NCBI GenBank assembly: GCA_038257425.1
Contig: JBBSJI010000002.1
Span: forward strand, 9,940 to 73,939
Source: Chitinophagales bacterium
GTDB taxonomy: Bacteria; Bacteroidota; Bacteroidia; Chitinophagales; Chitinophagaceae
Length of the DNA: 64,000 bases
Direction: 5' to 3'
The translations under genes and the position numbers were made by a program. Shown piece by piece: positions 3,201-54,986 of this stretch; position 1 is the first letter of the stretch; each line of letters begins with the position of its first letter. The notes beneath the pieces are model-generated. The model saw only the letters and a program-made list of their open reading frames with translations, was not told where the DNA came from and searched no databases.

Positions 3201-3740
3201 AATGCTTACACTCTCATACAGGTATCCTTTCTTATACAATTCGCTCAGGCACCACCAAAGGGTTTCAACATAATTATTTTCAAATGTTACATAAGGGTCT
3301 TTCAGATCTACCCAATAACCCATTTTTTGGGTTATATCATCCCACTTATCTTTAAACCGCATCACCACTTCACGACATTTTTTATTGTAATCCTCTACAG
3401 ATATTTTTACACCGATATCTTCTTTGGTTATGCCTAATTCTTTTTCAACGCCCAACTCAATAGGCAAGCCATGAGTATCCCAACCGCCTTTACGTTTTAC
3501 CTGAAAACCCTGCATGGTTTTGTAGCGGCAAACCAAATCTTTTAATGTCCTGGAAATAACATGATGTATACCGGGCATACCATTGGCACTTGGGGGACCT
3601 TCATAGAATACAAACGGAGGGTGGCCTTCACGGAACTGAACACTTTTTTCAAAGGTTTCTTCTTTCTTCCATTTTGCCAAAATCTCTTCACTTATGGAAG
3701 GGAGGTTCAATTGCTGGTATTCGGTATATTTTACACTCAT
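240..3740 (-). CDS. ileS: isoleucine--tRNA ligase (long, type-2-like)
   Basis: 1166-aa ORF with a HIGH-region (PGIHHV), KMSKS motif (GNKMSKRLGN) and editing-domain motif WTTTPWTLP. Contains four in-frame GC-hairpin repeat units (see repeat features). Confidence 0.97.
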   Translation of the reverse strand: MSVKYTEYQQLNLPSISEEILAKWKKEETFEKSVQFREGHPPFVFYEGPPSANGMPGIHHVISRTLKDLVCRYKTMQGFQVKRKGGWDTHGLPIELGVEKELGITKEDIGVKISVEDYNKKCREVVMRFKDKWDDITQKMGYWVDLKDPYVTFENNYVETLWWCLSELYKKGYLYESVSIQPYSPAAGTGLSSHELNQPGTYKDVKDTSAVAMFRLLKTSPQPSPKEREQHPAVAKIFSAIAESSSIHPSGGGGAFFMAWTTTPWTLPSNLGLTVGPNIDYVMVKTFNPYTHLPINVILAKALVTKYFKVENENGNFGEYSEKLSNIEVSKISPSGGGGAIPWKIIAEFKGKEFEGISYEQLLPSEANTLEKIKEITPSAQPFRVIVGDFVTTEDGTGIVHTAPAFGADDFKAGQKNNLGILTLVDKQGKFVEGVGEFSNRYVKNYKDEKDYVDVNVDIAVKLKKENRAFKVEKYEHNYPHCWRTDKPIIYYPLDAWFIKTTAVKDRMVELNKTINWKPASTGTGRFGNWLENMVDWNLSRSRFWGTPLPIWKTEDGEEEKCIGSIEELNNEIKKAAEVLGGETNKHYLHEGILDLHKPYVDEITLVSPLGKPMQRVPDLIDVWFDSGAMPYAQWGLDMEKVNGGNPFPFGKGWDGAFPADFIAEGVDQTRGWFYTLHALAVLLFDSVAYKTVVSNGLVLDKAGNKMSKRLGNVVDPFATIDSFGADATRWYLITNASPWDSLKFDSEGIKEVQRKFFGTLYNTYQFFALYANVDGFAFKENYIPVKDRPEIDQWILSSLNSLIKDVQENFDAYEPTQVGRAIEDFVDAHLSNWYVRLCRRRFWKGEYEHDKICAYQTLYECLETLCKLMAPVAPFFADWLFNNLNTVSNRFNKQSVHHTDFPKVNGTVIDVDLEKRMQLAQDISSLILSLRKNKKVNLKVRQPLQKVFIPALDITMAERINKVAEIIKAETNIKEVEVLRPDNDFIKKKAKANFKTLGKKLGPKMKWAAEQISAFDNTVIDQVLENEYLLNPDYKTSGEEPIIINAEDLEISTDEIPGYEVAVKGQLTVALDIVITDHLKKEGDAREFINRIQNIRKDSGFNLADRIDIIVSENAGLQPSIIQYKDYICAEILADSLTFLPVLNDGMEIEVNEAILKVNVLKKGQ
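1771..1805 (-). repeat. GC-hairpin unit R, translated in ileS
   Basis: GCCCCATCCCAA + CCTTTCCC-AAA-GGGGAAGG. On the coding strand it reads NPFPFGKGWDGA. Confidence 0.7.
2722..2747 (-). repeat. GC-hairpin unit A, translated in ileS
   Basis: GCCCCTCCGCCCCCCGAAGGGGAGAT. The coding strand encodes ISPSGGGGA. Identical to unit B at 22 of 26 nt. Confidence 0.8.
2977..3002 (-). repeat. GC-hairpin unit B, translated in ileS
   Basis: GCCCCCCCACCCCCCGAAGGGTGGAT. The coding strand encodes IHPSGGGGA. Confidence 0.8.
3053..3086 (+). repeat. GC-hairpin unit C, translated (antisense orientation) in ileS
   Basis: GCTCCCTCTCC-TTT-GGAGAGGG + CTGGGGTGAGGT. The ileS strand encodes TSPQPSPKEREQ. Confidence 0.85.
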
Positions 3741-25644: not shown

Positions 25645-25995
25645 ATGGGTGCTTCTTCCATGATTGTTTTGATTATTGCAGGGCTTGCATTTTCCATTAT
25701 TACAATTATGGTTGCTAAGGTGCTCACGAAGGGAACAAAAAATGCACAGAAAGGTGAGCCTTACGAATGTGGAATACCTACGCAGGGTAAAACATGGGTA
25801 CAGCTAAACGTAGGCTATTATTTATTTGCTCTTATCTTTTTAATTTTTGATGTAGAACTCATCTTTATTTTTCCATGGGCTGTTGTAGCCAAGTCGGTGG
25901 GCTGGCTTGCTTTGGTAGAGATCATCATTTTCTTTTTTATTTTATTTATGGGATTCTTATATGCACATAAAAAAGGTGCGTTGAAGTGGAAATAG
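25645..25995 (+). CDS. nuoA: NADH-quinone oxidoreductase subunit A
   Basis: 116 aa with 3 TM segments and the conserved PYECG motif. First gene of the nuo cluster. Confidence 0.92.
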   Translation: MGASSMIVLIIAGLAFSIITIMVAKVLTKGTKNAQKGEPYECGIPTQGKTWVQLNVGYYLFALIFLIFDVELIFIFPWAVVAKSVGWLALVEIIIFFFILFMGFLYAHKKGALKWK

Positions 25996-26025
25996 CGCCC
26001 ACCCAAACCCTCCCGAATGGAGGGC
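25996..26025 (-). repeat. GC-hairpin unit D (reverse orientation)
   Basis: CGCCCACCCAAA + CCCTCC-CGAAT-GGAGGG. Begins at the base after the nuoA TAG stop. Confidence 0.8.
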
Positions 26026-26040
26026 TTTAAAGAGTATAAT

Positions 26041-26619
26041 ATGCGGAACAGCTTTTCAAATAATTCAGAGTCTTCAAAAGCCCCTCCGAAGGAGGGGCTT
26101 GGGGAGGCCTCTTTTCCGGGCCAGATACAGGAACTGCCCGGCGGGGGTATTGTATTAAGCAAGCTTGATGAGGTTATCAACTGGGCAAGGTCAAACTCTT
26201 TATGGCCGCTCACCTTTGCTACAAGTTGTTGCGGTATTGAAATGATGGCCGTAGCTTCTGCAAAGTATGATTTCTCAAGATTTGGATTTGAAGTGGCACG
26301 TGCTTCACCGAGGCAGGCAGATGTAATTATTATTGCCGGTACCATAGTAAATAAGATGGGACCGGTTTTAAAAAGATTGTACGACCAGATGGCTGATCCC
26401 AAATACGTGATCGCCATGGGGGCCTGTGCTATAAGTGGCGGACCTTTTTTTTATAATACTTATTCTGTTGTTAAAGGTGCAGATCATATTATACCGGTGG
26501 ATGTATATATACCCGGTTGCCCGCCAAGGCCCGAAGCACTGTTACATGCACTGATAAGCTTACAGGATAAAATAAAAGCCGGTATGACAAGAGAGCAAAT
26601 AAAGACCGGTAAAGAATAA
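26041..26619 (+). CDS. nuoB: NADH-quinone oxidoreductase subunit B
   Basis: Cluster-N2 ligand motifs [15 protein letters not shown] and IPGCPPRPE. The track start at 26017 lies in the loop of hairpin D, so I prefer the ATG at 26041. The N-terminus contains repeat unit E. Confidence 0.93.
26080..26109 (+). repeat. GC-hairpin unit E (forward), translated in nuoB
   Basis: GCCCCTCC-GAA-GGAGGGGC + TTGGGGAGGCC. Encodes [10 protein letters not shown] in the nuoB frame. Confidence 0.85.
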
Positions 26620-26621
26620 TT

Positions 26622-27080
26622 ATGGGGAACGAAGCCTTAAAGACCAAAATAACTGAACTGGTTGCTGCTGCCACTTTTGATGAAACGGGTGAGTGGCTTA
26701 GTATTTCTGTTGACTCCAAAGATTGGCTGCCTCTTGCTCAACAACTTCACTATGAAGAAAACCTACAGTTCGATTATCTTTTCTGTTTAACGTGCATTGA
26801 TTTTAAAGCAAACCTTACGATGGTTTACCATCTTAGCTCAACCATATTCCGGCATAATATAGTTATAAAATCTGTTCTTAATAGAGACAAACCCGAAATT
26901 GAATCTGTAAGTCATATCTGGAAGACGGCGGATTTTCACGAACGGGAAGCATATGAAATGTTTGGTGTAGATTTTTTAAACCATCCCGACCTGAGGTTAT
27001 TGATATTACCTGATGGATGGGAGGGAAAGAATCCGATGCGGAAAGATTTTGAGGATCCGGTGAATATGATCAAATTGTAA
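26622..27080 (+). CDS. nuoC: NADH-quinone oxidoreductase subunit C
   Basis: 152 aa with the 30-kDa subunit motif HEREAYEMFGVDF. Confidence 0.92.
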   Translation: MGNEALKTKITELVAAATFDETGEWLSISVDSKDWLPLAQQLHYEENLQFDYLFCLTCIDFKANLTMVYHLSSTIFRHNIVIKSVLNRDKPEIESVSHIWKTADFHEREAYEMFGVDFLNHPDLRLLILPDGWEGKNPMRKDFEDPVNMIKL

Positions 27081-27081
27081 A

Positions 27082-27106
27082 GCCCCCTCAATCCCCCGAA
27101 GGGGGA
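27082..27106 (-). repeat. GC-hairpin unit F (reverse)
   Basis: GCCCCCTCAA + TCCCCC-GAA-GGGGGA, starting 2 nt after the nuoC TAA stop. Confidence 0.8.
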
Positions 27107-27123
27107 AACAAAGCAAGAGAATA

Positions 27124-28278
27124 ATGTATAGAAATACTGATATAATTAGCGAAGGTTCTCAAAGCCCCTCCTTTGGAGGGGTTGGGGAGGCCGGTGATCT
27201 GATCATCAATGTAGGGCCGCAGCATCCTGCAACACATGGTGTATTGCACCTGGTGATCACCCTTAATGGTGAAACTATTAAAAAGGTAGAGCCGCACCTG
27301 GGTTATATTCACCGCTCTATTGAAAAAATGTGTGAGAGCCTCACCTACCGCCAATTCATTTATGTTACCAGCCGCATGGATTATCTCTCTGCCCATATCA
27401 ATAACCAGGCCTGTGCGTTAACGGTAGAGAAAGGTTTGCAGGTGGAGGTTCCCGAAAGGGCTCAAGTGATTAGAGTGCTTATGGCAGAACTTACAAGAAT
27501 TGCATCGCATGAATTATGGTGGGGTGCTATGGCCATGGATATTGGTGCGTTCACACCTTTCTTTCATGCGTTCAGGGAAAGAGAGACCATTAATGATATC
27601 ATGGAAGAAACCTGCGGTGCCAGGTTAACCATGAATTATATGGTGCCTGGTGGCGTAATGCAGGAACTGCATCCCGACTTTCAAAAGAAGGTAAAAGAAT
27701 TCATCACGCTCTTTAAATCGAAAGTGCATGAGTATGATGAAATGGTTACGGGTAATATTATTTTTCAAAACCGGATGAAGGGTGTAGGTATCTTATCAAA
27801 AGAAGATGCGATTTCTTTTGGTTGCACGGGCCCTACAGGCAGGGGGAGTGGCCTGAGTTGTGATATCAGGAAATTATATCCTTACGATGCTTATAGTAAA
27901 GTGCAGTTTGAGGAGATCATTGAAACAGCCGGCGATTCACTGGCCCGTTACATGGTACGCATAAAAGAACTGCATCAATCCATACATATAATAGAACAAT
28001 TGATAGATAATATTCCCGAAGGAGATTTTCAGGCTAAGACAAAAGCCGTTTTAAAATTACCCAAGGGTGAGTTTTACCAAAGAGTGGAAACAGCAAGAGG
28101 AGAGTTTGGTGTGTACATAGTAAGTGAAGGTGGCATGACACCTTACCGGATCAAATTCCGTTCACCAGGATTTTCAAATCTTTCAGCATTGGATCATATG
28201 GCAAGAGGGAGTAAGCTGGGAGATTTGGTGGCGATGATGGGAACACTTGATTTGGTGATACCGGATATTGACAGATAA
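27124..28278 (+). CDS. nuoD: NADH-quinone oxidoreductase subunit D
   Basis: 384 aa with NVGPQHPATHGVLHLV and C-terminal DLVIPDIDR. The N-terminus contains repeat unit G. Confidence 0.95.
   Translation: MYRNTDIISEGSQSPSFGGVGEAGDLIINVGPQHPATHGVLHLVITLNGETIKKVEPHLGYIHRSIEKMCESLTYRQFIYVTSRMDYLSAHINNQACALTVEKGLQVEVPERAQVIRVLMAELTRIASHELWWGAMAMDIGAFTPFFHAFRERETINDIMEETCGARLTMNYMVPGGVMQELHPDFQKKVKEFITLFKSKVHEYDEMVTGNIIFQNRMKGVGILSKEDAISFGCTGPTGRGSGLSCDIRKLYPYDAYSKVQFEEIIETAGDSLARYMVRIKELHQSIHIIEQLIDNIPEGDFQAKTKAVLKLPKGEFYQRVETARGEFGVYIVSEGGMTPYRIKFRSPGFSNLSALDHMARGSKLGDLVAMMGTLDLVIPDIDR
27164..27192 (+). repeat. GC-hairpin unit G (forward), translated in nuoD
   Basis: GCCCCTCC-TTT-GGAGGGG + TTGGGGAGGCC. 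Encodes SPSFGGVGEA. Near-identical to unit E. Confidence 0.85.
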
Positions 28279-28283
28279 AAAAA

Positions 28284-28372
28284 TAATAATGAACAAGGAA
28301 CAAGGAATCCCGAACAAGGAAGTGGGTATTCCGATTGTTATTCATAATTCCTTGTTCCTTGTTCGATATTCA
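28284..28372. repeat. tandem-arm long hairpin X1 (GAACAAG-repeat arms)
   Basis: Left arm AATAATGAACAAGGAACAAGGAAT, right arm ATTCCTTGTTCCTTGTTCGATATTCA, giving an 18-bp perfect stem. Fills the nuoD-nuoH spacer. Arms are identical to X2. Confidence 0.9.
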
Positions 28373-28376
28373 TAAG

Positions 28377-29453
28377 ATGTGGAGTTTAAATAAAATATCG
28401 TCTTCCATTCAGGATTGGTTGAACCAAACATTCGATCCAACCTGGTCATTGATCTTTCAAATGCTCATTGCAGGCATTGCTGTGATCAGCCTGTTTGCTG
28501 TGCTGGGTTTAGTTTTAGTGTTGATGGAAAGAAGGGTTGCCGCCTGGATGCAGATCAGGCTGGGACCCAACCGGGTTGGTCCAAAAGGTTTATTACAATC
28601 CTTCGCTGATACTTTAAAATTGTTGGTGAAAGAAGGTTTAACTCCAAATGGTGCTGATAAATTCTTATTCAACCTGGCACCTATCATTGCATTGGTTGTT
28701 GCTATGCTTTTAATGGCACCTATTGCTTTTGCAAAAGATTTTCAACTCTGGAATTTAAATATAGGCGTACTGTATGTATCAGCAGTTTCTTCCATTATGA
28801 TCATCAGTATTTTAATGGCAGGCTGGGCAAGCAATAATAAATATTCATTGATGGGCGCTATGCGTAGCGGTGCACAGATCGTAAGCTATGAATTATCTGC
28901 AGGCCTTTCCATTCTTACGATAGTTGTATTAACAGGCAGCCTGAATATTTCCGACATCATTTATTCGCAGGCAGATGGCTGGTGGATATTTAAAGGACAT
29001 ATACCCGTAATCATTTCGTTTGTAATATTTATAATTGCCGTTACTGCAGAAACCAACCGGGCGCCTTTTGACCTGGCAGAAGCAGAATCAGAATTGACTG
29101 CAGGGTTTCATACTGAATATTCAGGGATGAAATTCGCCTTGTTCTTTTTAGCAGAGTATGTAAATGTATTTATTGTATGTGCTATTGGAGCCACATTGTT
29201 TTTAGGTGGATGGATGCCTTTACATATTGGTAACTGGGAAGGCTTTAATCATGTGATGGATTATATTCCATCCAGCGTATGGTTCTTTGGAAAAACGTTC
29301 TTCCTGATCTTTGTAATTATGTGGTTCAGGTGGACATTCCCCCGCCTCCGTATTGACCAGTTATTGAATTTAGAATGGAAATATTTGTTACCGATAAGTA
29401 TGTTTAATCTACTGTTGGTTACAGCGATCGCAATATTGGGATGGCATTTTTGA
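28377..29453 (+). CDS. nuoH: NADH-quinone oxidoreductase subunit H
   Basis: Motifs RLGPNRVGPKGLLQ and TAETNRAPFDLAEAESEL. I moved the start to 28377 because the track start at 28335 translates the X1 repeat arm (IPCSLFDIHK). Confidence 0.93.
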   Translation: MWSLNKISSSIQDWLNQTFDPTWSLIFQMLIAGIAVISLFAVLGLVLVLMERRVAAWMQIRLGPNRVGPKGLLQSFADTLKLLVKEGLTPNGADKFLFNLAPIIALVVAMLLMAPIAFAKDFQLWNLNIGVLYVSAVSSIMIISILMAGWASNNKYSLMGAMRSGAQIVSYELSAGLSILTIVVLTGSLNISDIIYSQADGWWIFKGHIPVIISFVIFIIAVTAETNRAPFDLAEAESELTAGFHTEYSGMKFALFFLAEYVNVFIVCAIGATLFLGGWMPLHIGNWEGFNHVMDYIPSSVWFFGKTFFLIFVIMWFRWTFPRLRIDQLLNLEWKYLLPISMFNLLLVTAIAILGWHF

Positions 29454-29476
29454 CCCCCAGCCCCCTGAAGGGGGAG
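29454..29476 (-). repeat. GC-hairpin unit H (reverse)
   Basis: CCCCCAG + CCCCC-TGAA-GGGGG, beginning at the base after the nuoH TGA stop. Confidence 0.75.
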
Positions 29477-29541
29477 TATTGCGAAGATTGTGTTGTAAAT
29501 ATTGTAGAAGTATTGAAGTAATAAAATTATAGTGTTATAAT

Positions 29542-30078
29542 ATGAGTGATGATTTAAAAAATAAAGACTTCAAAACTCCCCCCTTGGGGGGCGGGGGGGC
29601 TGGTTGGGGGGTTCAGTATTTTAAAGATATTTTCAATGCAATTAAGTCGCTGCTCATTGGCATGCGCCGTACAGGTTATTATTTTACGCATCACAAGGAG
29701 ATCATCACACAGCAATATCCTGATAACCGGGAAACATTGAATTTGCCGGAACGCTTTAAAGGCGAAGTGATCTTACTGCATGATGAAAACAATGAGCACG
29801 CCTGCACCGGTTGTACTGCCTGTGAGCTGGCATGTCCCAATGCAACTATAAAAATTGTTACGCAATTCGATATTACACCCGAAGGCAAAAAGAAAAAAGC
29901 ATTGGACAAATTTGTGTATCACCTTGAGCTGTGTACCTTATGCAATCTGTGTATCATCGCTTGCCCTACGGATGCTATAAAAATGGCACAGACATTTGAA
30001 CACAGTGTTTTTGACAGGGCAGAGCTGACTAAAATTTTAAATAAACCCGGTTCTAAAATAAGAGAAGGTATCGAGTAA
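29542..30078 (+). CDS. nuoI: NADH-quinone oxidoreductase subunit I
   Basis: Two CxxCxxCxxxCP motifs (CTGCTACELACP, CTLCNLCIIACP). The N-terminus contains repeat unit I. Confidence 0.93.
   Translation: MSDDLKNKDFKTPPLGGGGAGWGVQYFKDIFNAIKSLLIGMRRTGYYFTHHKEIITQQYPDNRETLNLPERFKGEVILLHDENNEHACTGCTACELACPNATIKIVTQFDITPEGKKKKALDKFVYHLELCTLCNLCIIACPTDAIKMAQTFEHSVFDRAELTKILNKPGSKIREGIE
29569..29611 (+). repeat. GC-hairpin unit I (forward), translated in nuoI
   Basis: TTCAAAA + CTCCCCCC-TT-GGGGGG + CGGGGGGGCTGGTTGGGGGG. Encodes KTPPLGGGGAGWG. Confidence 0.75.
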
Positions 30079-30139: not shown

Positions 30140-30186
30140 TAAAGCCCGGCCTCTCCCGATAATTATCGGGAGAACGAGGGTGAGGC
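30140..30186 (+). repeat. GC-hairpin unit J (forward, variant stem)
   Basis: GCCCGGCC + TCTCCCGAT-AATT-ATCGGGAGA + ACGAGGGTGAGGCC, in the nuoI-nuoJ spacer. Confidence 0.7.
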
Positions 30187-30204
30187 CATGATTGACCGGC
30201 CTGC

Positions 30205-30232
30205 TGTCATCCTGAGCGGTAGCGAAGGATCT
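30205..30232 (+). repeat. GTCATCCTGAGCGGTAGCGAAGGATCTC motif (half-unit of the third repeat family)
   Basis: Shares the GTCAnCCTGAG core with the left arm at 41151. Lies in the nuoI-nuoJ spacer. Confidence 0.4.
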
Positions 30233-30269
30233 CTTGCTGAGACTAAAAAATTGAATACGAATAATAGTT

Positions 30270-30845
30270 ATGACAGGATCTGCAATTATATTCTATTTAC
30301 TGGCCGCACTTACATTAGGAAGTGCATGGTTGGCTGTTACCACCAGGATGATCTTCAGGGCGGCAATTTATCTTTTGTTTGCGCTGATAGGTATTGCAGG
30401 TATTTATTTCTGGCTGCAATACGAATTTATTGCTGCTGTTCAGATCGTGGTGTATGTAGGAGGAATCGTAGTAATTATCATTTTTTCAATTTTCCTTACT
30501 CAGCAGGCAGGCGATCTTTTACCTAAACAGAAATTAGGCAGGCAAATATTTTCAGCACTGGCTGCATTTTGTGGAATGGCATTAGTAATGCTGCAGTTGG
30601 CACAACATGAATTTGTTGCAACTGCTAATGCTGCGATTGAACCTAGTGTAGCCAATATCGGATACCAGATGTTGGGAACAGATGATAATGGTTATGCATT
30701 GCCATTTGAAGTGGTAAGTATTTTATTGCTGGCTGCATTGATCGGTTGTATTGTGATTGCGGCCCCCTCTGAACTTCGTTCTTTCCCTGGCGGGAACCCC
30801 AAAGGGGGAGAAAAAACCCTTAGTTCAACCGAAAATAATACTTGA
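30270..30845 (+). CDS. nuoJ: NADH-quinone oxidoreductase subunit J
   Basis: 191 aa with 5 TM segments, positioned between nuoI and nuoK. The last ~27 aa are read through repeat unit L. Confidence 0.9.
   Translation: MTGSAIIFYLLAALTLGSAWLAVTTRMIFRAAIYLLFALIGIAGIYFWLQYEFIAAVQIVVYVGGIVVIIIFSIFLTQQAGDLLPKQKLGRQIFSALAAFCGMALVMLQLAQHEFVATANAAIEPSVANIGYQMLGTDDNGYALPFEVVSILLLAALIGCIVIAAPSELRSFPGGNPKGGEKTLSSTENNT
30761..30810 (-). repeat. GC-hairpin unit L (reverse; compound/degenerate), translated as the nuoJ tail
   Basis: GGCCCCCTCTGAA (compare unit K, GGCCCCTCTAAA) + TTCCC-TGGC-GGGAA + CCCC-AAA-GGGG. Encodes AAPSELRSFPGGNPKGGE. Confidence 0.45.
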
Positions 30846-30883: not shown

Positions 30884-30916
30884 GTCCTCCCTTTCGGGGA
30901 GGATTTAGGAGGGGCC
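30884..30916 (+). repeat. GC-hairpin unit M (forward)
   Basis: TCCTCCC-TTTCG-GGGAGGA + TTTAGGAGGGGCC, ending 2 nt before the nuoK ATG. Confidence 0.75.
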
Positions 30917-30918
30917 GC

Positions 30919-31236
30919 ATGATGATAGAACCTGGACTATATCAATTGCTTTTTATTAGTACTGCACTGTTCTTCATTGGTGTGTACGGGTTCTTTACCC
31001 GGCGCAACCTCGTTACTATGCTCATGAGTGTTGAGTTGATATTGAACAGCGTGAACCTGAATTTTATTGCATTCAATAAATATTTGTGGTACGACAAACT
31101 GGATGGAGTTTTCTTCACCATTTTTATTATTGCCATTGCAGCCGCAGAAGCGGCGGTTGCCATAGCTATCATAATTAATTTATACCGAAGTCATAAATCT
31201 ATTGATGTGGAGAATGCGGAAGAGATGAAATTTTAA
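30919..31236 (+). CDS. nuoK: NADH-quinone oxidoreductase subunit K
   Basis: 105 aa with 3 TM segments and conserved Glu residues in the membrane helices (SVELILNS, AAAEAAV). Confidence 0.92.
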   Translation: MMIEPGLYQLLFISTALFFIGVYGFFTRRNLVTMLMSVELILNSVNLNFIAFNKYLWYDKLDGVFFTIFIIAIAAAEAAVAIAIIINLYRSHKSIDVENAEEMKF

Positions 31237-31239
31237 TAA

Positions 31240-31270
31240 CCTCACCCCAACCCCTCTCCAAAGGAGAGGG
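31240..31270 (-). repeat. GC-hairpin unit N (reverse)
   Basis: CCTCACCCCAA + CCCTCTCC-AAA-GGAGAGGG, 3 nt after the nuoK TAA stop. Its flank is the exact reverse complement of the unit O flank. Confidence 0.85.
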
Positions 31271-31383
31271 AACTGGGAGATCGAAGCGGTGAGGTGCGGA
31301 GAATTCAGTTTTAGTTTTAAAAGTTTAGGTCTTAATTTGGAACAATGATTCAAAATTTGAGAAGTATTTTTTAATAACCGATA

Positions 31384-31422
31384 TCAAACCCCCTCTCTTT
31401 AAGGAGAGGGTTGGGGTGAGGT
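31384..31422 (+). repeat. GC-hairpin unit O (forward)
   Basis: TCAAA + CCCCCTCTC-TTTAA-GGAGAGGG + TTGGGGTGAGGT, ending 4 nt before the nuoL ATG. Confidence 0.85.
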
Positions 31423-31426
31423 AATA

Positions 31427-33445
31427 ATGCCAAACACAACTTACATAACACTGATCATCTTGCTGCCACTGGCAGGCTTTATAATGCTTGGGCTTTTTGG
31501 TAGAAGATATTTTACTAAAACCTCCGGCGTTATAGGAACAGCATTGTTATTGGTTTCAACCCTGCTTGCCTTACATACTGCTTATAGCTATTTCTTTGAG
31601 TATGGAAAAGTGAATGGTGTTTATCAAAAATTAGTTCCACTTAAATATACATGGTTACAATTTTCCGAGGGCGTATCAATTGATATGGGGATCATCATCG
31701 ATCCCATCTCTGTAATGATGCTAATAGTGGTATCCTTTATTTCTTTAATGGTGCATATCTATAGCCTTGGTTATATGAAAGGCGATGAAAGATTCCCTAC
31801 TTATTTTGCATTCCTGGGGTTGTTTACTTTTTCTATGCTGGGACTGGTTATTTCTTCTAACATTTTCCAGATCTATATTTTTTGGGAGCTGGTGGGTGTT
31901 TCCTCTTTCCTGCTGGTTGGCTATTATTATGATAAACCCAGTGCAGTTGCTGCCTGCAAAAAAGCTTTTATTGTAACAAGGTTTGCCGATGTGGGCTTTT
32001 TGATCGGCATTTTAATCCTGTCTTTTTATTCAGGCACATTAGATTTTAATACATTGATCGCAACACTCACTTCTCCTGAAACCAATGGCTATAAAAATGC
32101 AGTGGCAGCATCTTTCCTGGGTGTTTCTGCATTAACCTGGGGATTAGTATTAGTGTTCATCGGTGCTGCTGGCAAGAGTGCGATGTTTCCTTTACATATC
32201 TGGCTGCCCGATGCGATGGAAGGCCCAACACCAGTCTCAGCATTGATACATGCTGCTACCATGGTGGTTGCCGGCGTTTTTTTAGTGGCAAGATTATTTC
32301 CCGTGTTTGCCATTTCAGCTCCCGGGGCTTTGAGCCTTGTTGGTTATGTTGGCGCCATCTCTGCATTATTTGCAGCAGTGATAGCCTGCACACAAACAGA
32401 TATTAAACGGGTGTTGGCTTATTCCACGATGAGCCAGATAGGATACATGATGTTTGCACTAGGTGTTTCAAAATACGGTGGCGAGGAAAGCCTGGGTTAC
32501 ACCGCATCTATGTTTCATTTGTTCACACATGCCATGTTTAAAGCATTGTTGTTTTTAGGCGCAGGTGCTGTAATACATTATATACACAGCAACGAAATGA
32601 AAGACATGGGTGGGTTAAGAAAATATTTACCCATCACCCATATTACTTTTTTAATTGCCTGCCTGGCTATTGCAGGTGTGCCGCCGTTTGCAGGGTTCTT
32701 CAGCAAAGAAGAGATCCTATTGGCTGCTTATCAAAATAACCAGGCCATTTACTGGATAGCATTGATCACTTCCGGCTTAACAGCTTTTTATATGTTCCGT
32801 TTGTACTTCAATATTTTCTGGAGCAAAGACCATCACGCACATACTCAACAGCATGCTACCGAGTTGAAATCTGAAATTACGGAAGCTGTGGCTCCCTCTC
32901 CTTTGGAGAGGGAGGGGGGTGAGGTCCATAAAGGTGAAGGTGGATTTACTATGATGATGCCTTTAGTATTATTAGCTATTGGCGCAGCAGCTGCAGGCTT
33001 TATTCCTTTCGGTCATTTTGTTAGCTCCGATGGAACAAGGCTGGAAGCTGAATTCCATTTGCAGTTTTCCATTGCTCCTGTGGCACTTGGACTGGCAGGA
33101 ATTTTTATTGCTATGTGGATGTATAAAAAAGAAAATAATAAACCCGATAGGTTTGTTGCTTCGCTGCATGGGTTATACAAAGCGGCTTATCATAAATTCT
33201 ATATTGATGAGATCTATTTGTTCATCACAAAAAAAATAATTTTTAATCTCATCGGCAGGCCGGCAGCATGGTTTGATAAAAATGTAGTTGATGGAATGGT
33301 GAATGCAACCGGCAATGGCACAAAAGATATTTCAGAAATTATAAAAAGTTTTCAATCAGGTAAGGTACAGCAATATGCTATTTACTTTTTGGTAAGTGTT
33401 ATTGGCCTGGCATTGCTGTTTATATACGTTTGGAACCCCCGCTAA
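31427..33445 (+). CDS. nuoL: NADH-quinone oxidoreductase subunit L
   Basis: 672 aa antiporter-like subunit with a long C-terminal extension. Contains in-frame repeat unit P. Confidence 0.95.
   Translation: MPNTTYITLIILLPLAGFIMLGLFGRRYFTKTSGVIGTALLLVSTLLALHTAYSYFFEYGKVNGVYQKLVPLKYTWLQFSEGVSIDMGIIIDPISVMMLIVVSFISLMVHIYSLGYMKGDERFPTYFAFLGLFTFSMLGLVISSNIFQIYIFWELVGVSSFLLVGYYYDKPSAVAACKKAFIVTRFADVGFLIGILILSFYSGTLDFNTLIATLTSPETNGYKNAVAASFLGVSALTWGLVLVFIGAAGKSAMFPLHIWLPDAMEGPTPVSALIHAATMVVAGVFLVARLFPVFAISAPGALSLVGYVGAISALFAAVIACTQTDIKRVLAYSTMSQIGYMMFALGVSKYGGEESLGYTASMFHLFTHAMFKALLFLGAGAVIHYIHSNEMKDMGGLRKYLPITHITFLIACLAIAGVPPFAGFFSKEEILLAAYQNNQAIYWIALITSGLTAFYMFRLYFNIFWSKDHHAHTQQHATELKSEITEAVAPSPLEREGGEVHKGEGGFTMMMPLVLLAIGAAAAGFIPFGHFVSSDGTRLEAEFHLQFSIAPVALGLAGIFIAMWMYKKENNKPDRFVASLHGLYKAAYHKFYIDEIYLFITKKIIFNLIGRPAAWFDKNVVDGMVNATGNGTKDISEIIKSFQSGKVQQYAIYFLVSVIGLALLFIYVWNPR
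32891..32925 (+). repeat. GC-hairpin unit P (forward), translated inside nuoL
   Basis: GCTCCCTCTCC-TTT-GGAGAGGGAG + GGGGGTGAGGT. Encodes APSPLEREGGEV. The first 22 nt are identical to unit C in ileS. Confidence 0.85.
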
Positions 33446-33459: not shown

Positions 33460-33523
33460 AAAGCGCTGGAATTATTTTAAAGTTGAAATGGAAGAACAAA
33501 TGTTTATTAATGATTTTAAAAAC

Positions 33524-33563
33524 CGCTCCTTCCCTATCGGGGAAGGAGAAGGAGGATGGGGCC
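33524..33563 (+). repeat. GC-hairpin unit Q (forward)
   Basis: CTCCTTCCC-TATCG-GGGAAGGAG (9-bp stem) + AAGGAGGATGGGGCC. Overlaps the first possible nuoM ATG. Confidence 0.75.
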
Positions 33564-35040
33564 GATGAATCTATCATTTTTGATATTGTTGCCACTGCTC
33601 ACTGCAATACTCATATTGCTGATGAAGAATGCTGCACAGGTTAAGTGGGTGGCACTGGCAGGCGCAACAGCCCAGTTGGTATTGAGTTTTGTATTACTTT
33701 ATCTTTTTCGTGAGCAGCAGGCTGATCGGAATACCACACAAATGTTATTTGAGCAACAATATGATTGGTTCCCTTCCTGGAACATCAGTTTCCATTTTGG
33801 AGTTGACGGTATTTCTGTGGCCATGATCTTATTAACAGCTTTTGTAGTCATCGCCGGTGTGCTGGTTTCCTGGAATGTAACCAAAATGACAAAGGAGTTT
33901 TATTTCCTCCTCATTTTATTAAGTCTTGGTGCATATGGTTTCTTTATTTCGCTTGACCTGTTCATCTTATTTTTCTTTTTAGAAATCGCTGTTATTCCCA
34001 AATATTTACTCATCGGTATCTGGGGAAGTGGTAAAAAAGAATACAGTGCCAATAAACTGGCGCTGATGCTGATGGGCGGCTCTGCACTGGTGTTGGTTGG
34101 CCTGCTCGGGGTTTATTTTTCCAATACTACACATAGTTTTGATTTAATGTACCTATCTCAAATCAATATCCCAATAAAAACACAGATGATCTGTTTCCCT
34201 TTATTGTTTGTGGGTTTTGGTGTATTCACAGCTTTGTTTCCTTTTCATACCTGGGTACCCGATGGTCACTCGTCTGCACCTACAGCAGGGTCTATGTTTC
34301 TTGCCGGCATTTCTATGAAGCTTGGTGGTTACGGTTGTTTACGTGTGGCAACATACATTATGCCCGAAGGTGCAAAGGAATATGCGGAGATCATCATTGT
34401 ACTTTCTGTCATTGCCATTTTATATGGAGCCTTTGCTACCATGATGCAGAAGGATCTTAAATATATCAATGCCTATTCATCGGTGAGTCATTGCGGATTT
34501 GTTTTACTGGGTATTGGGATGCTCACCAGAACATCCATGACAGGTGCGGTGATGCAAATGGTTTCGCATGGTTTAATGACGGCACTTTTCTTTGCTATCA
34601 TCGGCATGATCTACGAACGCACACACACCAGGCAGGTGAGTGAGATGGGAGGGTTGTTAAAGAAGATGCCTTTTATCATCTCTGTATTGTTCATTGTTGG
34701 TTTGTGTTCACTAGGTTTACCCGGACTGAGTGGTTTTGTAGCAGAGATGACCGTGTTCATGGGTTCCTGGGAACATCCTGATACATTTAGAAGGGTAGCA
34801 ACAATTCTTGCATGTCTTTCTATTGTTGTAACAGCCGTTTATATTTTACGGGCTGTTACAAAAACAGCCATGGGCCCATTAAAGGAAGGATTTGAAAGTT
34901 TGACCGATGCAACCTGGAATGAAAAATTAGCAGCACTGATACTGATAGCCGGAATTATTGCGATTGGTGTTGCACCATTCTGGCTGAATGACCTGGTTAG
35001 CCCGGGAGCGGAAGTGATTATGAATAAAATTGGTAAATAA
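33556..35040 (+). CDS. nuoM: NADH-quinone oxidoreductase subunit M
   Basis: 494 aa antiporter-like subunit. The first ATG (33556) lies in the repeat Q flank; alternative ATG at 33565 (MNLSFLILL). Confidence 0.94.
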   Translation: MGPMNLSFLILLPLLTAILILLMKNAAQVKWVALAGATAQLVLSFVLLYLFREQQADRNTTQMLFEQQYDWFPSWNISFHFGVDGISVAMILLTAFVVIAGVLVSWNVTKMTKEFYFLLILLSLGAYGFFISLDLFILFFFLEIAVIPKYLLIGIWGSGKKEYSANKLALMLMGGSALVLVGLLGVYFSNTTHSFDLMYLSQINIPIKTQMICFPLLFVGFGVFTALFPFHTWVPDGHSSAPTAGSMFLAGISMKLGGYGCLRVATYIMPEGAKEYAEIIIVLSVIAILYGAFATMMQKDLKYINAYSSVSHCGFVLLGIGMLTRTSMTGAVMQMVSHGLMTALFFAIIGMIYERTHTRQVSEMGGLLKKMPFIISVLFIVGLCSLGLPGLSGFVAEMTVFMGSWEHPDTFRRVATILACLSIVVTAVYILRAVTKTAMGPLKEGFESLTDATWNEKLAALILIAGIIAIGVAPFWLNDLVSPGAEVIMNKIGK

Positions 35041-35052
35041 CATTGCTAAATA

Positions 35053-35158
35053 AATAATGAACAAGGAACAAGGAATTTCGAATGATGAGCGTCCGCAAGC
35101 GTCTGCGGAGAATTTCGAACTTCTGAAGTCAATATTCCTTGTTCCTTGTTCGATATTC
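35053..35158. repeat. tandem-arm long hairpin X2
   Basis: Same 24-nt and 26-nt arms as X1, with a longer centre containing an inner hairpin TCCGCA-AGCGTC-TGCGGA and a direct repeat GAATTTCGAA x2. Fills the nuoM-nuoN spacer. Confidence 0.9.
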
Positions 35159-35168
35159 AAATAAAAAT

Positions 35169-36569
35169 ATGCTAAATGATTTTTTAATATTAATGAAACC
35201 TGAACTGCTGTTAACCGGTATCATTTTCCTGTTGCTGTTCATCAAGATCGGCAAAGGTTTAAAAAATGATACCATGCTGTTATTGGTACAGGTGCTGTTA
35301 TTACTGAATTTTATTTTCGGTTTCTTTTTTAATACAGATGGCTCATTGTTTGATGGTATGTACGTAACTACAAACATGATCGTGTTGCAGAAAAGTATTC
35401 TAAGCCTGGGTGTTTACCTGATCTCTTTATTATTTGCAGATTGGTTTAAGAAAAGTGAACACATGCCCGAGTTCTTTATGCTGATGTTATCAGCATTGCT
35501 GGGTATGTTCTTCCTTATTTCGAGCGGTAACCTGCTGATGTTCTTTTTAGCTTTGGAATTATCTACTATTCCCGTAGCTGCCATGGCAAATTTCGATCTT
35601 GATAAAAAAAGATCTTCTGAAGCGGCCATGAAGATGATCCTGTCTTCGGCATTCTCTTCCGGTATTTTATTGTTTGGTATTTCATTGATATATGGAGCAA
35701 CCGGTACAATCAGTTTTGCTGAAATTCCACAGCAGCTTAATGGCAGCCCTTTACAGATCCTTGCATTGGTATTCCTGTTTTCAGCATTTGCTTTTAAATT
35801 ATCTATTGTTCCCTTTCATTTATGGACGGCAGATGTATATGAAGGATCACCGATGGCTGTTACTTCGTTTCTTTCTGTTATATCCAAAGGAGCTGTTGCA
35901 TTTATTTTTATGGCAACACTGTATAAAGTGTTTCAGCCCATGCAGGAAACCTGGTACAACCTGGTGATGATCCTGTCCATAGCTACCATGATCATCGGTA
36001 ACCTGTTTGCATTACGTCAACAAAATATAAAACGCTTTCTTGCCTTTTCCTCCATTGCTCAGGTTGGTTTTATTTTAGTAGGTATCAGCAGTAATTCCAT
36101 TGAAGGAACAACATCGGTTGTTTATTTTATTTTGATCTATGTGTTTTCAAACCTGGCAGCATTTGGTGTGGCTGCAGCCATTGCAGCAAAAGCTAACCGG
36201 GAAAATATTGATGATTATAAAGGTTTGTACCAGACCAATCCTTTCCTGAGCTGGGTATTGGCACTGGCTTTATTTTCACTGGCCGGTATTCCGCCAACTG
36301 CAGGCTTCTTTGGTAAATTATTCTTATTAACTGCCGGTGCATCAAAAGGCAGCTATCTTTTCATTACGATTGCTGCACTAAATATGATCATTTCCCTGTA
36401 TTATTATTTACGTGTTGTACGGTCTGTGTTTATGGAAAAGAATGAACAGCCGGTAGAAAAAGTGGCGATCGAACCCTCTGCAAAATTTGCATTGATCATT
36501 TGCAGCGCAGGCATAATTTTAGTTGGCTTATTAAGCTGGATATATGATTACATACAAAACCTGGTTTAG
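35169..36569 (+). CDS. nuoN: NADH-quinone oxidoreductase subunit N
   Basis: 466 aa antiporter-like subunit. I moved the start to 35169 because the track start at 35139 translates the X2 repeat arm. Confidence 0.93.
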   Translation: MLNDFLILMKPELLLTGIIFLLLFIKIGKGLKNDTMLLLVQVLLLLNFIFGFFFNTDGSLFDGMYVTTNMIVLQKSILSLGVYLISLLFADWFKKSEHMPEFFMLMLSALLGMFFLISSGNLLMFFLALELSTIPVAAMANFDLDKKRSSEAAMKMILSSAFSSGILLFGISLIYGATGTISFAEIPQQLNGSPLQILALVFLFSAFAFKLSIVPFHLWTADVYEGSPMAVTSFLSVISKGAVAFIFMATLYKVFQPMQETWYNLVMILSIATMIIGNLFALRQQNIKRFLAFSSIAQVGFILVGISSNSIEGTTSVVYFILIYVFSNLAAFGVAAAIAAKANRENIDDYKGLYQTNPFLSWVLALALFSLAGIPPTAGFFGKLFLLTAGASKGSYLFITIAALNMIISLYYYLRVVRSVFMEKNEQPVEKVAIEPSAKFALIICSAGIILVGLLSWIYDYIQNLV

Positions 36570-36643
36570 AAGTTTAGGAGTTTAGAAGATTAGTTGAGTA
36601 ATCTCCTGGACCCTAAACCCCTAAACCCCTAAACCCCTAAACT
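36564..36643. repeat. tandem-arm hairpin Y with CCCCTAAA octamer array
   Basis: The left arm GTTTAGAAGTTTAGGAGTTTAGAAG opposes the right arm CCCTAAACCCCTAAACCCCTAAACCCCTAAACT. Overlaps the nuoN stop and ends 5 nt before the next ATG. Confidence 0.8.
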
Positions 36644-36648
36644 ATAAA

Positions 36649-54400: not shown

Positions 54401-54763
54401 TTTATCTTCCGTTCACTGGCCTATGAATATTTAGGTAGAAACGATTTAGTTCATGTATTGGATGCACCCGAAGTACAAAATTTAGGTAACGCAGAGTGGG
54501 ACCAGAATACACCTACCATTGGCGACCGTAAACCTGAGCTGAGTGAAGTGAGGGTGATTGCAGGCGCAACCAATGGTGCAACACAACCGGCCCAGCACCG
54601 CACTGCTCATGTAAAAGCACCGAATGGTATGGATGCCGTAAATGCAGCAGCTAAAAGCATGCAAAGCGATGCACCTGCCTGCAATACATGCGGACATATA
54701 ACAGTACGCAGCGGCACCTGTTACAAATGCCTGAATTGTGGTAATAGTATGGGCTGTAGTTAG
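51401..54763 (+). CDS. nrdJ: adenosylcobalamin-dependent (class II) ribonucleotide reductase
   Basis: 1120 aa with active-site regions NPCSEY and TNFSSIRGEGEKLSGGG. C-terminal Cys-rich tail CNTCGH...CYKCLNCG. Confidence 0.93.
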   Translation: MSKKSQPAKGLQFTRQFTKDDVSPFDMFEYDYRTSVIKNPSGEIVFQMDNVEVPKQWSQIATDILAQKYFRKAGVPKEDGTTGRETTVKQVAHRMAHCWRVWGERYDYFATANDALIFYDELVYSILNQACVPNSPQWFNTGLHEVYGITGKPQGHYYVDAKDGQLKKSANAYERPQPHACFILSVNDDLVNEGGIMDLWVREARIFKYGSGVGTNFSSIRGEGEKLSGGGTSSGLMSFLKIGDRAAGAIKSGGTTRRAAKMVCLDLDHPEIEKFINWKVQEEDKVAALIAAGYASDYEGEAYRTVSGQNSNNSIRIPNEFFKILDEDGEWELKGRSDGRVMKKVKAKELWEQITYAAWRCADPGTQYDTTINEWHTCPEGGPIRASNPCSEYMFLDNTACNLASVNLRQFFDESDNSFNVAGFEHTCRLWTVVLEISVLMAQFPSKEVAQLSYDYRTLGLGFANLGSMLMVSGIAYDSEEARGIAGAITAIMTGVSYKTSAELASFLGAFDKYEENKVHMLRVMRNHRAAAYDAADAYEGIEIKPQGINAKYCPDYLLKAATKAWDDAVQMGEKYGYRNAQTTVIAPTGTIGLVMDCDTTGVEPDFALVKFKKLSGGGYFKIINQSVPQALRNLKYSEKEIEEIVAYAKGHASLDKSPFINTKTLIEKGFTQEDIDKLNGVLGAAFEIGFVFNQYTLGEACLERLGFKPEQYQDFGWSLLEALGFSDEEIEAANIYICGTMTVEGAPYLKDEHLSVFDCANKCGQIGERFIHAHGHIRMMGAAQPFLSGAISKTINLPNEATQDEIADSYRLSWELGLKACALYRDGSKLSQPLSNKSDKKKKLDEAISEENAAALAADISTMVDMGKLTIDDLLDEMNKRVQNSADTTLKRQLAMIVERRALPAKRRGFTQKAKINGQALFLRTGEYNDGTLGEIFIDMAKEGATMRSMLNCFAIAISIGLQYGVPLEEYVEKFVFTRFEPSGMVDHPNIKSATSIIDFIFRSLAYEYLGRNDLVHVLDAPEVQNLGNAEWDQNTPTIGDRKPELSEVRVIAGATNGATQPAQHRTAHVKAPNGMDAVNAAAKSMQSDAPACNTCGHITVRSGTCYKCLNCGNSMGCS

Positions 54764-54791
54764 GCCCCTCTAAATCTCCCCCAAGGGGAGA
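54764..54791 (-). repeat. GC-hairpin unit K (reverse)
   Basis: GCCCCTCTAAA + TCTCCCC-CAA-GGGGAGA, beginning at the base after the nrdJ TAG stop. Confidence 0.8.
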
Positions 54792-54986
54792 CTTGTTAAC
54801 AGTTTGAATAAGCACGAACATAAATTAAACCATCAGTGTAAAAACCGGTGGTTTTTTTGTGGGTCAAATTTTATCTCTTTGGTCATCATCGTTGTAAATA
54901 TGATTTTGTCGTTTTTTTTGTTTTTAAAAAACAATTGCTGAGCATTTTTAGTTCCGTCAGGATATTGTTGTGGGTAGAGACCAGGC

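Follow-up and report, generated by a model that had tools for sequence, protein, structure and literature searches.

Hairpin repeats in a Chitinophagaceae nuo operon and their probable translation as N-terminal tails of NuoB, NuoD and NuoI

Dispersed palindromic repeats that lie in frame within housekeeping genes and are translated are known from Rickettsia as RPEs (Ogata et al. 2000; PMC10969869; PMC3184786). Other described repeats occupy gene ends and junctions, from the short GC-rich imperfect palindromes of the REP/BIME/REPIN type, some of which are found inside open reading frames (ORFs) or at ORF ends (PMC3733652; PMC3116915; PMC3337134), to Neisseria REP2, a start-bearing repeat that contains a ribosome-binding site together with an ATG and is fused to various ORFs (Parkhill 2000; Morelle 2003; PMC3184786), and MIRU, intercistronic repeats of polycistronic operons with small ORFs overlapping the flanking stop and start codons (Supply et al. 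1997; PMC3184786; PMC10969869). The locus considered here is the 11-gene nuo operon (A, B, C, D, H, I, J, K, L, M and N) contained in a 64,000-nucleotide stretch of DNA, hereafter the window (assembly GCA_038257425.1, contig JBBSJI010000002.1, positions 9,940 to 73,939), which derives from a Ferruginibacter-like bacterium in the Chitinophagaceae (Bacteroidota). Short hairpin units have colonised nearly all junctions of the operon and, at the starts of nuoB, nuoD and nuoI, are probably translated as N-terminal tails of the encoded complex I subunits.

The units have the consensus aaaGCCCCTCC-nnn-GGAGGGG-tTTGGGGAGGC (roughly 30-36 nt), comprising a C-rich arm, a loop of 3-5 nt, a G-rich arm and a G-rich tail, with stop codons in no frame. 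As with RPEs, in-frame units are read as extra residues, here in NuoB, NuoD, NuoI, NuoL, NuoJ and isoleucyl-tRNA synthetase (IleRS), and the host proteins are apparently functional. RPEs, however, measure ~100-150 bp, form families of their own and reside in alphaproteobacterial obligate intracellular hosts, whereas the present units are single hairpins with a G-rich tail in free-living Bacteroidota, occur for the most part at the ends of genes or between cistrons and, in three genes, are joined to a new start codon. Like REPs, which sometimes supply stop codons or sit at ORF ends, the units are short and GC-rich, often form inverted doublets with a spacer and are located within operons or right after stop codons, but they lack the GTAG or CGTC tag of the REP superfamilies (PMC3733652). 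No RAYT (Y1 transposase) gene was seen in a Pfam scan of 20 large ORFs of the window. REPs have also been noted at the N-termini of ORFs, where the real start was suspected to lie downstream (PMC3733652); in contrast, no downstream start is available here and the comparative data indicate that the repeat is translated. A module composed of ATG, leader and hairpin precedes nuoB, nuoH and nuoI, which is reminiscent of REP2, although the latter brings a promoter and a Shine-Dalgarno sequence to co-regulated virulence genes, while the nuo module follows no Shine-Dalgarno logic, acts within an operon and has its hairpin as part of the protein. In two relatives this module forms an upstream ORF 5' of nuoH with an overlapping ATGTTGA, as in MIRU; the latter are tandem-type repeats of 40-100 bp with another sequence and in another phylum, and the ORF in the window is fused to the downstream gene, not merely coupled to it. 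Larger elements of 110-185 nt, in which an AT-rich core separates a reverse from a forward unit, are MITE-like and fill sites that are empty in relatives (the H-I, C-D and K-L junctions, named after the flanking nuo genes). No description of these units was found in the literature searched; in their mode of action they resemble RPEs and REP2, without being members of either family.

Repeat units at the starts of nuoB, nuoD and nuoI

The host was placed in the Chitinophagaceae because its NuoD is 83-96% identical to those of 80 loci from metagenome-assembled genomes (MAGs) labelled Ferruginibacter, Chitinophagaceae or Chitinophagales; the G+C content of the genome is 40%. These 80 related nuo loci (L001-L080) and the window formed a comparison set of 81 sequences, in which the nuo genes were found by tblastn (with nuoA orthologues in about 70 loci) and the junctions were then compared. 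Junction states were assigned by peptide pattern and inspection of the DNA, automatic classification by perfect stems having been judged too crude. The gene names rest on PDB matches and on the Pfam domains of NuoD homologues: NuoB matches 2fug_6 (Nqo6/PSST; E = 3e-59 over residues 25-182), NuoI matches 7awt_I and 8qby_I (Nqo9/TYKY), and the homologues of NuoD, with 1543 library proteins scoring below 1e-30, bear PF00346 and PF00374 (Nqo4/49-kDa). Beyond the N-terminal tail, each of the three subunits shows full-length homology to its counterpart, Nqo6/PSST, Nqo4/49-kDa or Nqo9/TYKY. The genes and repeat units of the three junctions are as follows.

25645-25995, plus strand: nuoA, 116 aa, stop codon TAG at 25993-25995, from the ORF list and tblastn orthologues
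25996-26025, plus strand: reverse hairpin unit of the A-B junction, cgcccacccaaaCCCTCCcgaatGGAGGGc, a C-rich tail and then CCCTCC-cgaat-GGAGGG
26041-26619, plus strand: nuoB as inferred, 192 aa
26077-26109, plus strand: forward unit in nuoB, aaaGCCCCTCCgaaGGAGGGGCttggggaggcc, structured as aaaGCCCCTCC-gaa-GGAGGGGC-ttggggaggcc and read as 11 residues
26622-27080, plus strand: nuoC, 152 aa, stop codon TAA at 27078-27080
27081-27106, plus strand: reverse hairpin unit of the C-D junction, agccccctcaaTCCCCCgaaGGGGGA, structured as agccccctcaa-TCCCCC-gaa-GGGGGA and abutting the nuoC stop codon
27124-28278, plus strand: nuoD, 384 aa
27160-27192, plus strand: forward unit in nuoD, caaagCCCCTCC-ttt-GGAGGGG-ttggggaggcc
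28377-29453, plus strand: nuoH, stop codon TGA at 29451-29453
29454-29497, plus strand: reverse element of the H-I junction, cccccagCCCCCtgaaGGGGG, hairpin CCCCC-tgaa-GGGGG with the conserved extension agtattGCGAAGATTGTGTTGTA, directly after the nuoH stop codon
29542-30078, plus strand: nuoI, 178 aa
29571-29611, plus strand: forward unit in nuoI, caaaacTCCCCCC-ttg-GGGGGG-cgggggggctggttgggggg

The reverse units consist of a C-rich tail followed by a C/G hairpin of 5-6 bp and abut the upstream stop codons at 25996, 27081 and 29454, as a preliminary description of this DNA had it. That of the A-B junction begins on the base right after the nuoA stop codon and holds an additional in-frame ATG (26017) in its loop, while the extension agtattGCGAAGATTGTGTTGTA of the H-I element was seen again in relatives at C-D, K-L, A-B and minus-strand sites. 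The forward units, made up of a hairpin and then a G-rich tail such as TTGGGGAGGC, are located 36-45 nt 3' of the ATGs at 26041, 27124 and 29542. All six units have perfect stems of 5-8 bp and loops of 3-5 nt. The degenerate pattern CCYCCNNNGGRGGNNTTGGGG, with two mismatches at most, has six matches in 64 kb, a number reached by none of 100 dinucleotide shuffles (0.06 expected); these matches represent five of the six units, one of them counted in two registers and the A-B reverse unit being unmatched. The B-C junction of the window contains no repeat.

With initiation at these ATGs, NuoB would comprise a leader (residues 1-12), a stretch from the forward unit (residues 13-24) and, from residue 25 (FPGQIQ...), the region homologous to Nqo6/PSST. 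NuoD would begin with the leader MYRNTDIISEG, followed by the unit-encoded SQSPSFGGVGEA and the conserved core from GDLIINVGPQHP, and NuoI with the leader MSDDLKNKDF, the unit-encoded KTPPLGGGGAGWG and a core that opens with VQYFKDIFNAIKSLL; of the ancestral MFI start there is no trace. In nuoD, the ATG at 27124 is the sole one ahead of TTG 27244 and GTG 27253, both of which are past the GPQHP motif. In nuoB, the in-frame ATGs at 26017 and 26041 are followed by a canonical start only at 26242, within the Cys-rich core, and in nuoI ATG 29542 is followed by TTG 29584, which lies in the hairpin loop and is not conserved in relatives, and by ATG 29662 (M41). The earlier statement that each gene has a single plausible ATG thus holds for nuoD, but overlooks the second ATG of nuoB and the TTG in the nuoI hairpin loop. 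Position 26041 is taken as the conserved start of nuoB because, in relatives such as L001, it is at the leader ATG that the ORF begins and no in-frame ATG lies 5' of it. An in-frame scan of nuoB, nuoD and nuoI found no ATG, GTG or TTG between the forward unit and the conserved core, in agreement with what had been proposed.

Leader peptides were searched in all three frames of the relatives' loci. Window-type leaders were found to be open and in frame into the core in every instance (43/43 for NuoD, 29/29 for NuoB and 12/12 for NuoI), and the distance from ATG to core, which falls into seven length classes in NuoD, eight in NuoB and six in NuoI, is always a whole number of codons despite many indels. 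The entropies of codon positions 2, 1 and 3 over leader codons 2-11 are 0.53, 0.86 and 1.18 in NuoD, 0.34, 0.59 and 0.73 in NuoI, and 0.83, 0.91 and 1.06 in NuoB, so that in all three genes variation follows the order position 3 > 1 > 2 of coding sequence. Translation through the hairpin is strongly supported, since the leaders remain in frame despite indels and their codons vary as coding sequence does; the 84 stop-free leaders bear out the claim that the forward units are translated as N-terminal residues, and the peptides originally quoted for them are correct.

Where homology begins is in keeping with this. Distant NuoD homologues, whose own N-terminal tails range from 4 to 26 residues, align mostly from query residues 22-28, Nqo6 of T. 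thermophilus aligns from NuoB residue 25, the first past the unit, and for most NuoI homologues the alignment opens at about residue 31 or beyond. A homologous-protein search for leader outgroups gave close relatives only, and the 50%-identity representative library used is too distant for leader ancestry, yet informative on where homology begins. Repeat-free orthologues lack the extension and start at the core, homology sets in after the forward unit and no downstream start was found, so that the reading in the preliminary description withstands the comparison with orthologues. On this comparative evidence, it is strongly supported that repeat sequence is translated as an N-terminal extension of NuoB, NuoD and NuoI, with predicted initiation at the spacer ATG.

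The start context of the window-type ATGs is normal for the phylum. Bacteroidetes do not use Shine-Dalgarno sequences and their initiation relies on weak structure and upstream adenines, for example an A at -3 (PMC6847099); Shine-Dalgarno use is not expected in Bacteroidota (PMC6847099; for the ribosome structure, PMC7797042). In the 20 nt 5' of the window-type ATGs, A+T makes up 77%, and A accounts for 72% at -1 and 49% at -3. The predicted unpaired probability over -15 to +12 is 0.46-0.55, compared with 0.45-0.58 for other nuo starts, and is about 0.32 in the forward-unit region.

Junction states in related loci

Three junction states were recognized among the relatives: empty; with a whole element (reverse unit, AT-rich spacer and forward unit) 5' of an intact ancestral ATG; and window-type, with the core directly adjoining the forward unit, no ancestral start left and the frame opened by the spacer ATG. 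Empty H-I junctions ('TAAaataaaaaaATGtttatagtt') display an 18-nt gap and a NuoI that begins with MFIVKYIKD (L020, L021 and L028, of which L021 reads 'TAAaataaaaaaATGtttata'). Empty C-D junctions ('TGAtATGtttgaagaaataggcacaaccactgaaGGTGATCTG'), with TGAtATG and NuoD starting as MFEEIGTTTEGDL, occur in seven loci, and in L010, L012 and L021 the sequence is 'TGAtATGtttgaagaa...GGTGATCTG'. At repeat-free A-B junctions, the nuoB ATG either overlaps the nuoA stop codon (L012, L016, L029 and L048) or trails an AT-rich gap of ~45 nt (MTEQQNKAVDFPG). At the equivalent position of the window (25984-25995), the overlapping nuoB ATG of those four loci (aaATGgaagTAA) is a GTG (aaGTGgaaaTAG), whose frame stops after 14 codons and which looks like a relic of a lost overlapping nuoB start.

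A whole element lies between the stop codon and the ancestral ATG at C-D of L014, L024, L028 and L050 and at H-I of L001, L014, L019 and L078, a state also adopted by the K-L junction of the window (31240-31421). In window-type junctions, the ancestral start region that has been lost amounts to three codons in nuoI and about 10-11 in nuoB and nuoD. The states assort almost freely among close species: the repeat is translated at nuoB, nuoD and nuoI in the window and L005, at nuoB and nuoD only in L001, at nuoB and nuoI in L013, at nuoI only in L010 and at nuoB only in L008, and the two N-terminal types of NuoD are interspersed in a tree of the NuoD core. The B-C junction is empty in 71 of 74 loci. 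In L011, L049 and L064, the hairpin has decayed while the leader persists. An assembly artefact or a pseudogene was ruled out, as dozens of independent MAGs show these arrangements again, in each case followed by intact ORFs.

It is considered probable, on the strength of these sequence comparisons, that a family of hairpin repeats colonised the nuo junctions and that NuoB, NuoD and NuoI start at a spacer ATG and carry the translated repeat as an N-terminal tail. Dispersed units would have settled in nearly every junction of the operon. At A-B, C-D and H-I, initiation would take place at an AUG within an A/T-rich, weakly structured stretch 36-45 nt 5' of the forward hairpin, through which the elongating ribosomes would pass. 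The product would be a tail of 23-24 residues, with a polar leader and then a Pro/Gly-rich stretch such as PP-x-GG-x-GEA, taking the place of a short, non-conserved ancestral N-terminus; the N-terminal peptides predicted from spacer-ATG starts include MSDDLKNKDFKTPPLGGGG. The units may have spread as selfish REP/RPE-like DNA and would survive at places such as variable termini and surface loops, where the loop they encode does no harm. Their A/T-rich spacer could serve as a start because Bacteroidota initiate without Shine-Dalgarno sequences on unstructured A-rich leaders, and complex I would tolerate the tails as flexible extensions at its surface.

If so, essential and highly conserved respiratory proteins can have their start region and N-terminus replaced by dispersed hairpin repeats, for which the evidence is comparative, not anecdotal, in an arrangement that has lasted across dozens of species. 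The notion of selfish DNA inside proteins would thereby be extended from the RPEs of Rickettsia to free-living Bacteroidota, and annotation in this lineage would follow the rule that ORFs opening upstream of these hairpins are real. In addition, the natural series of empty junction, repeat 5' of the start and translated repeat would be useful for testing the effects of mRNA structure and start context in a phylum that does not rely on Shine-Dalgarno sequences.

Origin of the start regions and rival explanations

Whereas the N-terminal extensions are attributable to the repeats, as the preliminary description had claimed, the further claim that repeats supply the initiation regions fares differently in the three genes and is only partly supported. 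It is likely that the ATG and first ~11 codons are repeat-derived in NuoB and NuoI. The NuoI start is clearly new, since the ancestral ATG-TTT-ATA is gone and ten residues have been added. The NuoB-type leader (ATGAATAAC..TCTTCAA), searched as 26 nt with up to five mismatches and then a forward unit, was found together with the forward hairpin 23 times at A-B; it is also fused to nuoI in L050 (5164-5260) and placed 5' of nuoH in L080 (8195-8300) and L053 (8249-8350), where it forms an ORF of 33-36 codons whose stop codon overlaps the nuoH ATG (ATGTTGA). The ATG-leader-hairpin of NuoB is thus a module that behaves as portable between nuoB, nuoH and nuoI. In all three genes the hairpin starts 12-13 codons past the ATG. 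The evidence for a shared origin of the three leaders is suggestive only, with a mean identity of 0.50 between NuoB and NuoI leaders against 0.49 for an unrelated control (nuoA/nuoJ); the NuoD leader is unrelated to the other two (0.29-0.31 identity).

The description of each site as an inverted repeat pair was upheld in that both units are present, but they are not demonstrably one element. Reverse and forward units flank the spacer at four to five junctions, where pairing between them is predicted, yet either kind is also seen by itself; leaders without any reverse unit are found in L064, L011 and L049. No evidence of a single co-evolving stem was obtained, as duplex energies at the same locus did not differ significantly from those across loci at any junction. 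Because the two units do not co-vary, the pair may represent two separate insertions.

A number of observations weigh against repeat-derived starts spread by selfish units. The ATG and first ~11 codons are gene-specific and unlike the repeat consensus, and the NuoD and NuoI leaders were found at their own genes only, that of NuoD at C-D alone. With the unit removed, NuoD has 11 aa before DL and NuoB 10 aa before FPG, the length of the repeat-free type, and MFRETEI, a NuoD leader, is faintly like the repeat-free MFEEI. Complementarity between reverse and forward units of the same locus is no better than across loci (262/2000, 384/2000 and 172/2000 permutations). Insertion flanks such as TGA/.../TAAAT or TAATAA/.../TAATAATG hint at TA/TAA, with no consistent target-site duplication definable, and no transposase was identified by the Pfam scan among the 20 large ORFs of the window. 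Across the 81 sequences, one and the same rule detects ~256 units within or beside the nuo operons (roughly 636 kb) and six in 377 kb of 7-kb flanks, a ~25-fold difference in density. Finally, the C-D junctions of L004 (6921-7075) and L047 (463-616) are 95% identical and their spacers 100%. Both the concentration of units in nuo operons and the exceptional conservation of junction modules could point to a function.

The alternatives to translation from the spacer ATG differ widely in merit. It is very improbable that the real starts lie 3' of the forward units at non-canonical codons (CTG, ATA, ATT or ATC), leaving the units in 5' untranslated regions: near-cognate in-frame codons do exist past the units (ATA 26125 and CTG 26134 in nuoB, CTG 27199 and ATC 27202 in nuoD, ATT 29629 in nuoI), and over-extension of ORFs by gene callers at REP-bearing N-termini is a recognized caveat (PMC3733652), but these codons are not conserved, the 84 orthologous leaders are in frame and stop-free with indels all multiples of three, and their substitutions are of the coding type. 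Moreover, the conserved NuoI helix VQYFKDIFNAIKSLL must be translated, yet has no start of its own. Skipping of the hairpins by ribosomal bypassing or mRNA excision is hardly credible. Ribosomal bypassing is known at the GC-rich 'byp' elements of yeast mitochondria and at T4 gene 60, and in Magnusiomyces mitochondria GC-rich mobile hairpins in coding sequence are the substrate of programmed bypassing, a precedent that lends the idea what appeal it has; here, however, inserts are always stop-free and of whole codons, in all leaders as in 60 of 60 NuoL loop lengths, as ordinary translation needs and bypassing does not, and no pairs of take-off and landing codons were seen. A live alternative, although one judged less likely than repeat-derived starts, concerns NuoD and possibly NuoB: their starts may be ancestral, since the unit-free lengths equal those of the repeat-free type and MFRETEI resembles MFEEI, in which case a forward unit was inserted in frame ~11 codons into the gene in the manner of an RPE, an unrelated reverse unit entered the gap, only the hairpin-encoded residues are repeat-derived and the start within a repeat pair is merely apparent. 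Lone units do insert in frame elsewhere (the NuoL loop, IleRS and many metagenomic ORFs), in the leaders without a reverse unit (L064, L011 and L049) the ATG stands 5-15 nt past the upstream stop codon as at empty sites, and covariation between reverse and forward units was not found. This scenario is inapplicable to nuoI, which lacks ATG-TTT-ATA and has gained ten residues. It also sits poorly with the constant 12-13 codons from ATG to hairpin in three genes, with the NuoB-type leader and hairpin at nuoH and nuoI, which fit a portable module, and with the 42-43 MYR/MFR leaders of NuoD, all of which carry a unit or its remnant, against none of about 35 of the MFEE type, with no intermediates.

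A function in RNA is more doubtful. The reverse-spacer-forward modules might be selected intercistronic devices spread between species by recombination, acting as mRNA stabilizers, as processing sites or as cassettes that the terminating ribosome opens to expose the spacer AUG (coupling). Such a role would agree with the ~25-fold density of units in nuo operons, with the upstream ORF overlapping nuoH in L080 and L053 and with the independent assortment of three junction states among close species; in addition, the minimum-free-energy folds of C-D and H-I (z = -2.9 and -4.5) bring reverse and forward units into pairing around the start. The hairpin appears to be upheld by compensatory differences: over 30 orthologous copies of the one in the NuoD leader, 90% of cells retain pairing, with 18 double-sided changes and a result matched by none of 500 shuffles, in a test with a self-specified structure (RNAalifold missed this local hairpin through alignment register). 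The modules are also more conserved than neighbouring synonymous sites: overall identity between the nuoD cores of L004 and L047 is 81%, that at third positions 60%, and synonymous identity drops the further a site lies from the junction, a pattern suggestive of lateral exchange of a junction module. Neither nuo enrichment nor module conservation above synonymous sites is predicted by a purely selfish, neutral model. A general recombination tract around the junction was rejected, third-position decay being clear only in the L004/L047 and L002/L067 pairs. On the other hand, complementarity is not higher within than across loci, hairpins have decayed while the leader stays (L011, L049 and L064), identical units occur in unrelated coding sequences where an intercistronic role is impossible, and many species have empty junctions, from which the modules appear to be dispensable. 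Moreover, 25 of 40 forward units 5' of an ancestral ATG are not traversed by any ATG-initiated ORF, a count that also led to rejection of the idea that the hairpins are always translated, whether fused or in a coupled upstream ORF. More speculatively still, the junction modules, each made up of a structured reverse element, an A/T-rich start region that provides an ATG and a short polar leader, and a forward hairpin, might not be debris but exchangeable translation-initiation cassettes of these non-Shine-Dalgarno Bacteroidota, selected in a long operon sensitive to stoichiometry. They would conceivably move by recombination between nuoB, nuoH and nuoI and between species, and might, by making ribosomes begin 5' of the hairpin and melt it, determine initiation or coupling for individual cistrons. 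This unlikely proposal would account for the nuo enrichment, for module conservation beyond synonymous sites and for the free assortment of junction states.

The repeat family elsewhere in the window and in other DNA

The unit family has about 17 copies in the window and 262 in 1.0 Mb of related loci. Further units of the window and the remaining nuo genes are listed below.

2721-3002, minus strand: two in-frame units in IleRS (ORF 240-3740), ISPSGGGGA at 2721-2747 and IHPSGGGGA at 2976-3002
30270-30845, plus strand: nuoJ
30759-30810, plus strand: reverse-type unit forming the C-terminal extension of NuoJ (AAPSELRSFPGGNPKGGE...), replacing the ancestral C-terminus ...LKSKPETK
30884-30918, plus strand: untranslated forward unit that ends directly at the nuoK ATG (30919)
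30919-31236, plus strand: nuoK
31240-31421, plus strand: complete reverse unit, AT-rich spacer and forward unit between the nuoK stop codon and the nuoL ATG (31427)
31427-33445, plus strand: nuoL
32891-32926, plus strand: single in-frame forward unit within a nuoL loop that is variable and rich in His and Gly (APSPLEREGGEV)
33520-33564, plus strand: forward unit at the nuoM start, with a first ORF ATG (33556) in its G-rich tail and a second ATG at 33565
from 33556 or 33565, plus strand: nuoM, with nuoN also on this strand
54763-54792, plus strand: reverse unit abutting the stop codon of class II ribonucleotide reductase

The C-terminus of NuoJ in the window (30759-30845) reads ...CIVIAAPSELRSFPGGNPKGGEKTLSSTENNT up to the stop codon, compared with ...CIVIALKSKPETK in about 40 relatives; as it consists of an in-frame reverse-type unit, the repeats remodel C-termini too. 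The NuoL loop measures 72-180 nt in 60 loci, in all of which it is a multiple of three, and about 20 loci have a unit there. The start of nuoM could be either 33556, inside the forward-unit tail (ggaggATGgggccgATG), or 33565. Since two units are translated in frame in IleRS, the family is not confined to nuo; one of these unit regions corresponds to an insertion of ~33 residues relative to PDB 8c8w, and a possible decayed third segment, SPQPSPKERE, was noted in the same gene (2721-3083, minus strand).

Outside the related loci, the exact variant GCCCCTCCNNNGGAGGGGNTTGGGGAGGC is present in at least 120 metagenome contigs, about ten of which have nuo genes. The 123 metagenomic copies divide into 55 located between genes and 68 within ORFs of 120 aa or more, 23 in sense (mostly KAPPSEGFGEA) and 45 in antisense orientation (mostly ASPNPSxGGA); 18 of the 45 antisense copies provide the last codons of the ORF, with a stop within eight codons. 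The reverse unit belongs to a longer conserved element, a hairpin with GGAAATGGAGAAGATTRTGTTGTA at the left end, found at A-B, C-D, H-I, K-L and other sites.

The window also encodes a series of housekeeping neighbours, namely IleRS, TonB-dependent receptors, GyrB, Mfd, an S8 peptidase with a type IX secretion system (T9SS) tail, PPDK, PFOR, ProRS and class II ribonucleotide reductase. It contains no tRNAs, and no Rfam family was matched over its entire length at the gathering threshold.

Other repeats share the operon with these units. A second, unrelated inverted-repeat family (AATGAACAAGGAACAAGGAAT ... ATTCCTTGTTCCTTGTTCGATATTCA) is found at the nuoD-nuoH (28285-28373) and nuoM-nuoN (35058-35160) junctions and at C-D of L013, L015, L019, L032, L062 and L078. 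A third repeat type (GTTTAGAAGTTTAGGAG... / CCTAAACCCCTAAACCCCTAAAC) lies 3' of nuoN (36565-36645), a similar one filling the H-I junction of L003. The nuoI-nuoJ spacer (30144-30240) holds a variant unit, gcccggcCTCCCGataattatCGGGAGaacgagggtgaggcc, and then 'gtcatcctgagcggtagcgaaggatctc', seemingly another dispersed repeat, and a spurious ORF of 112 aa (30188-30526) begins within it.

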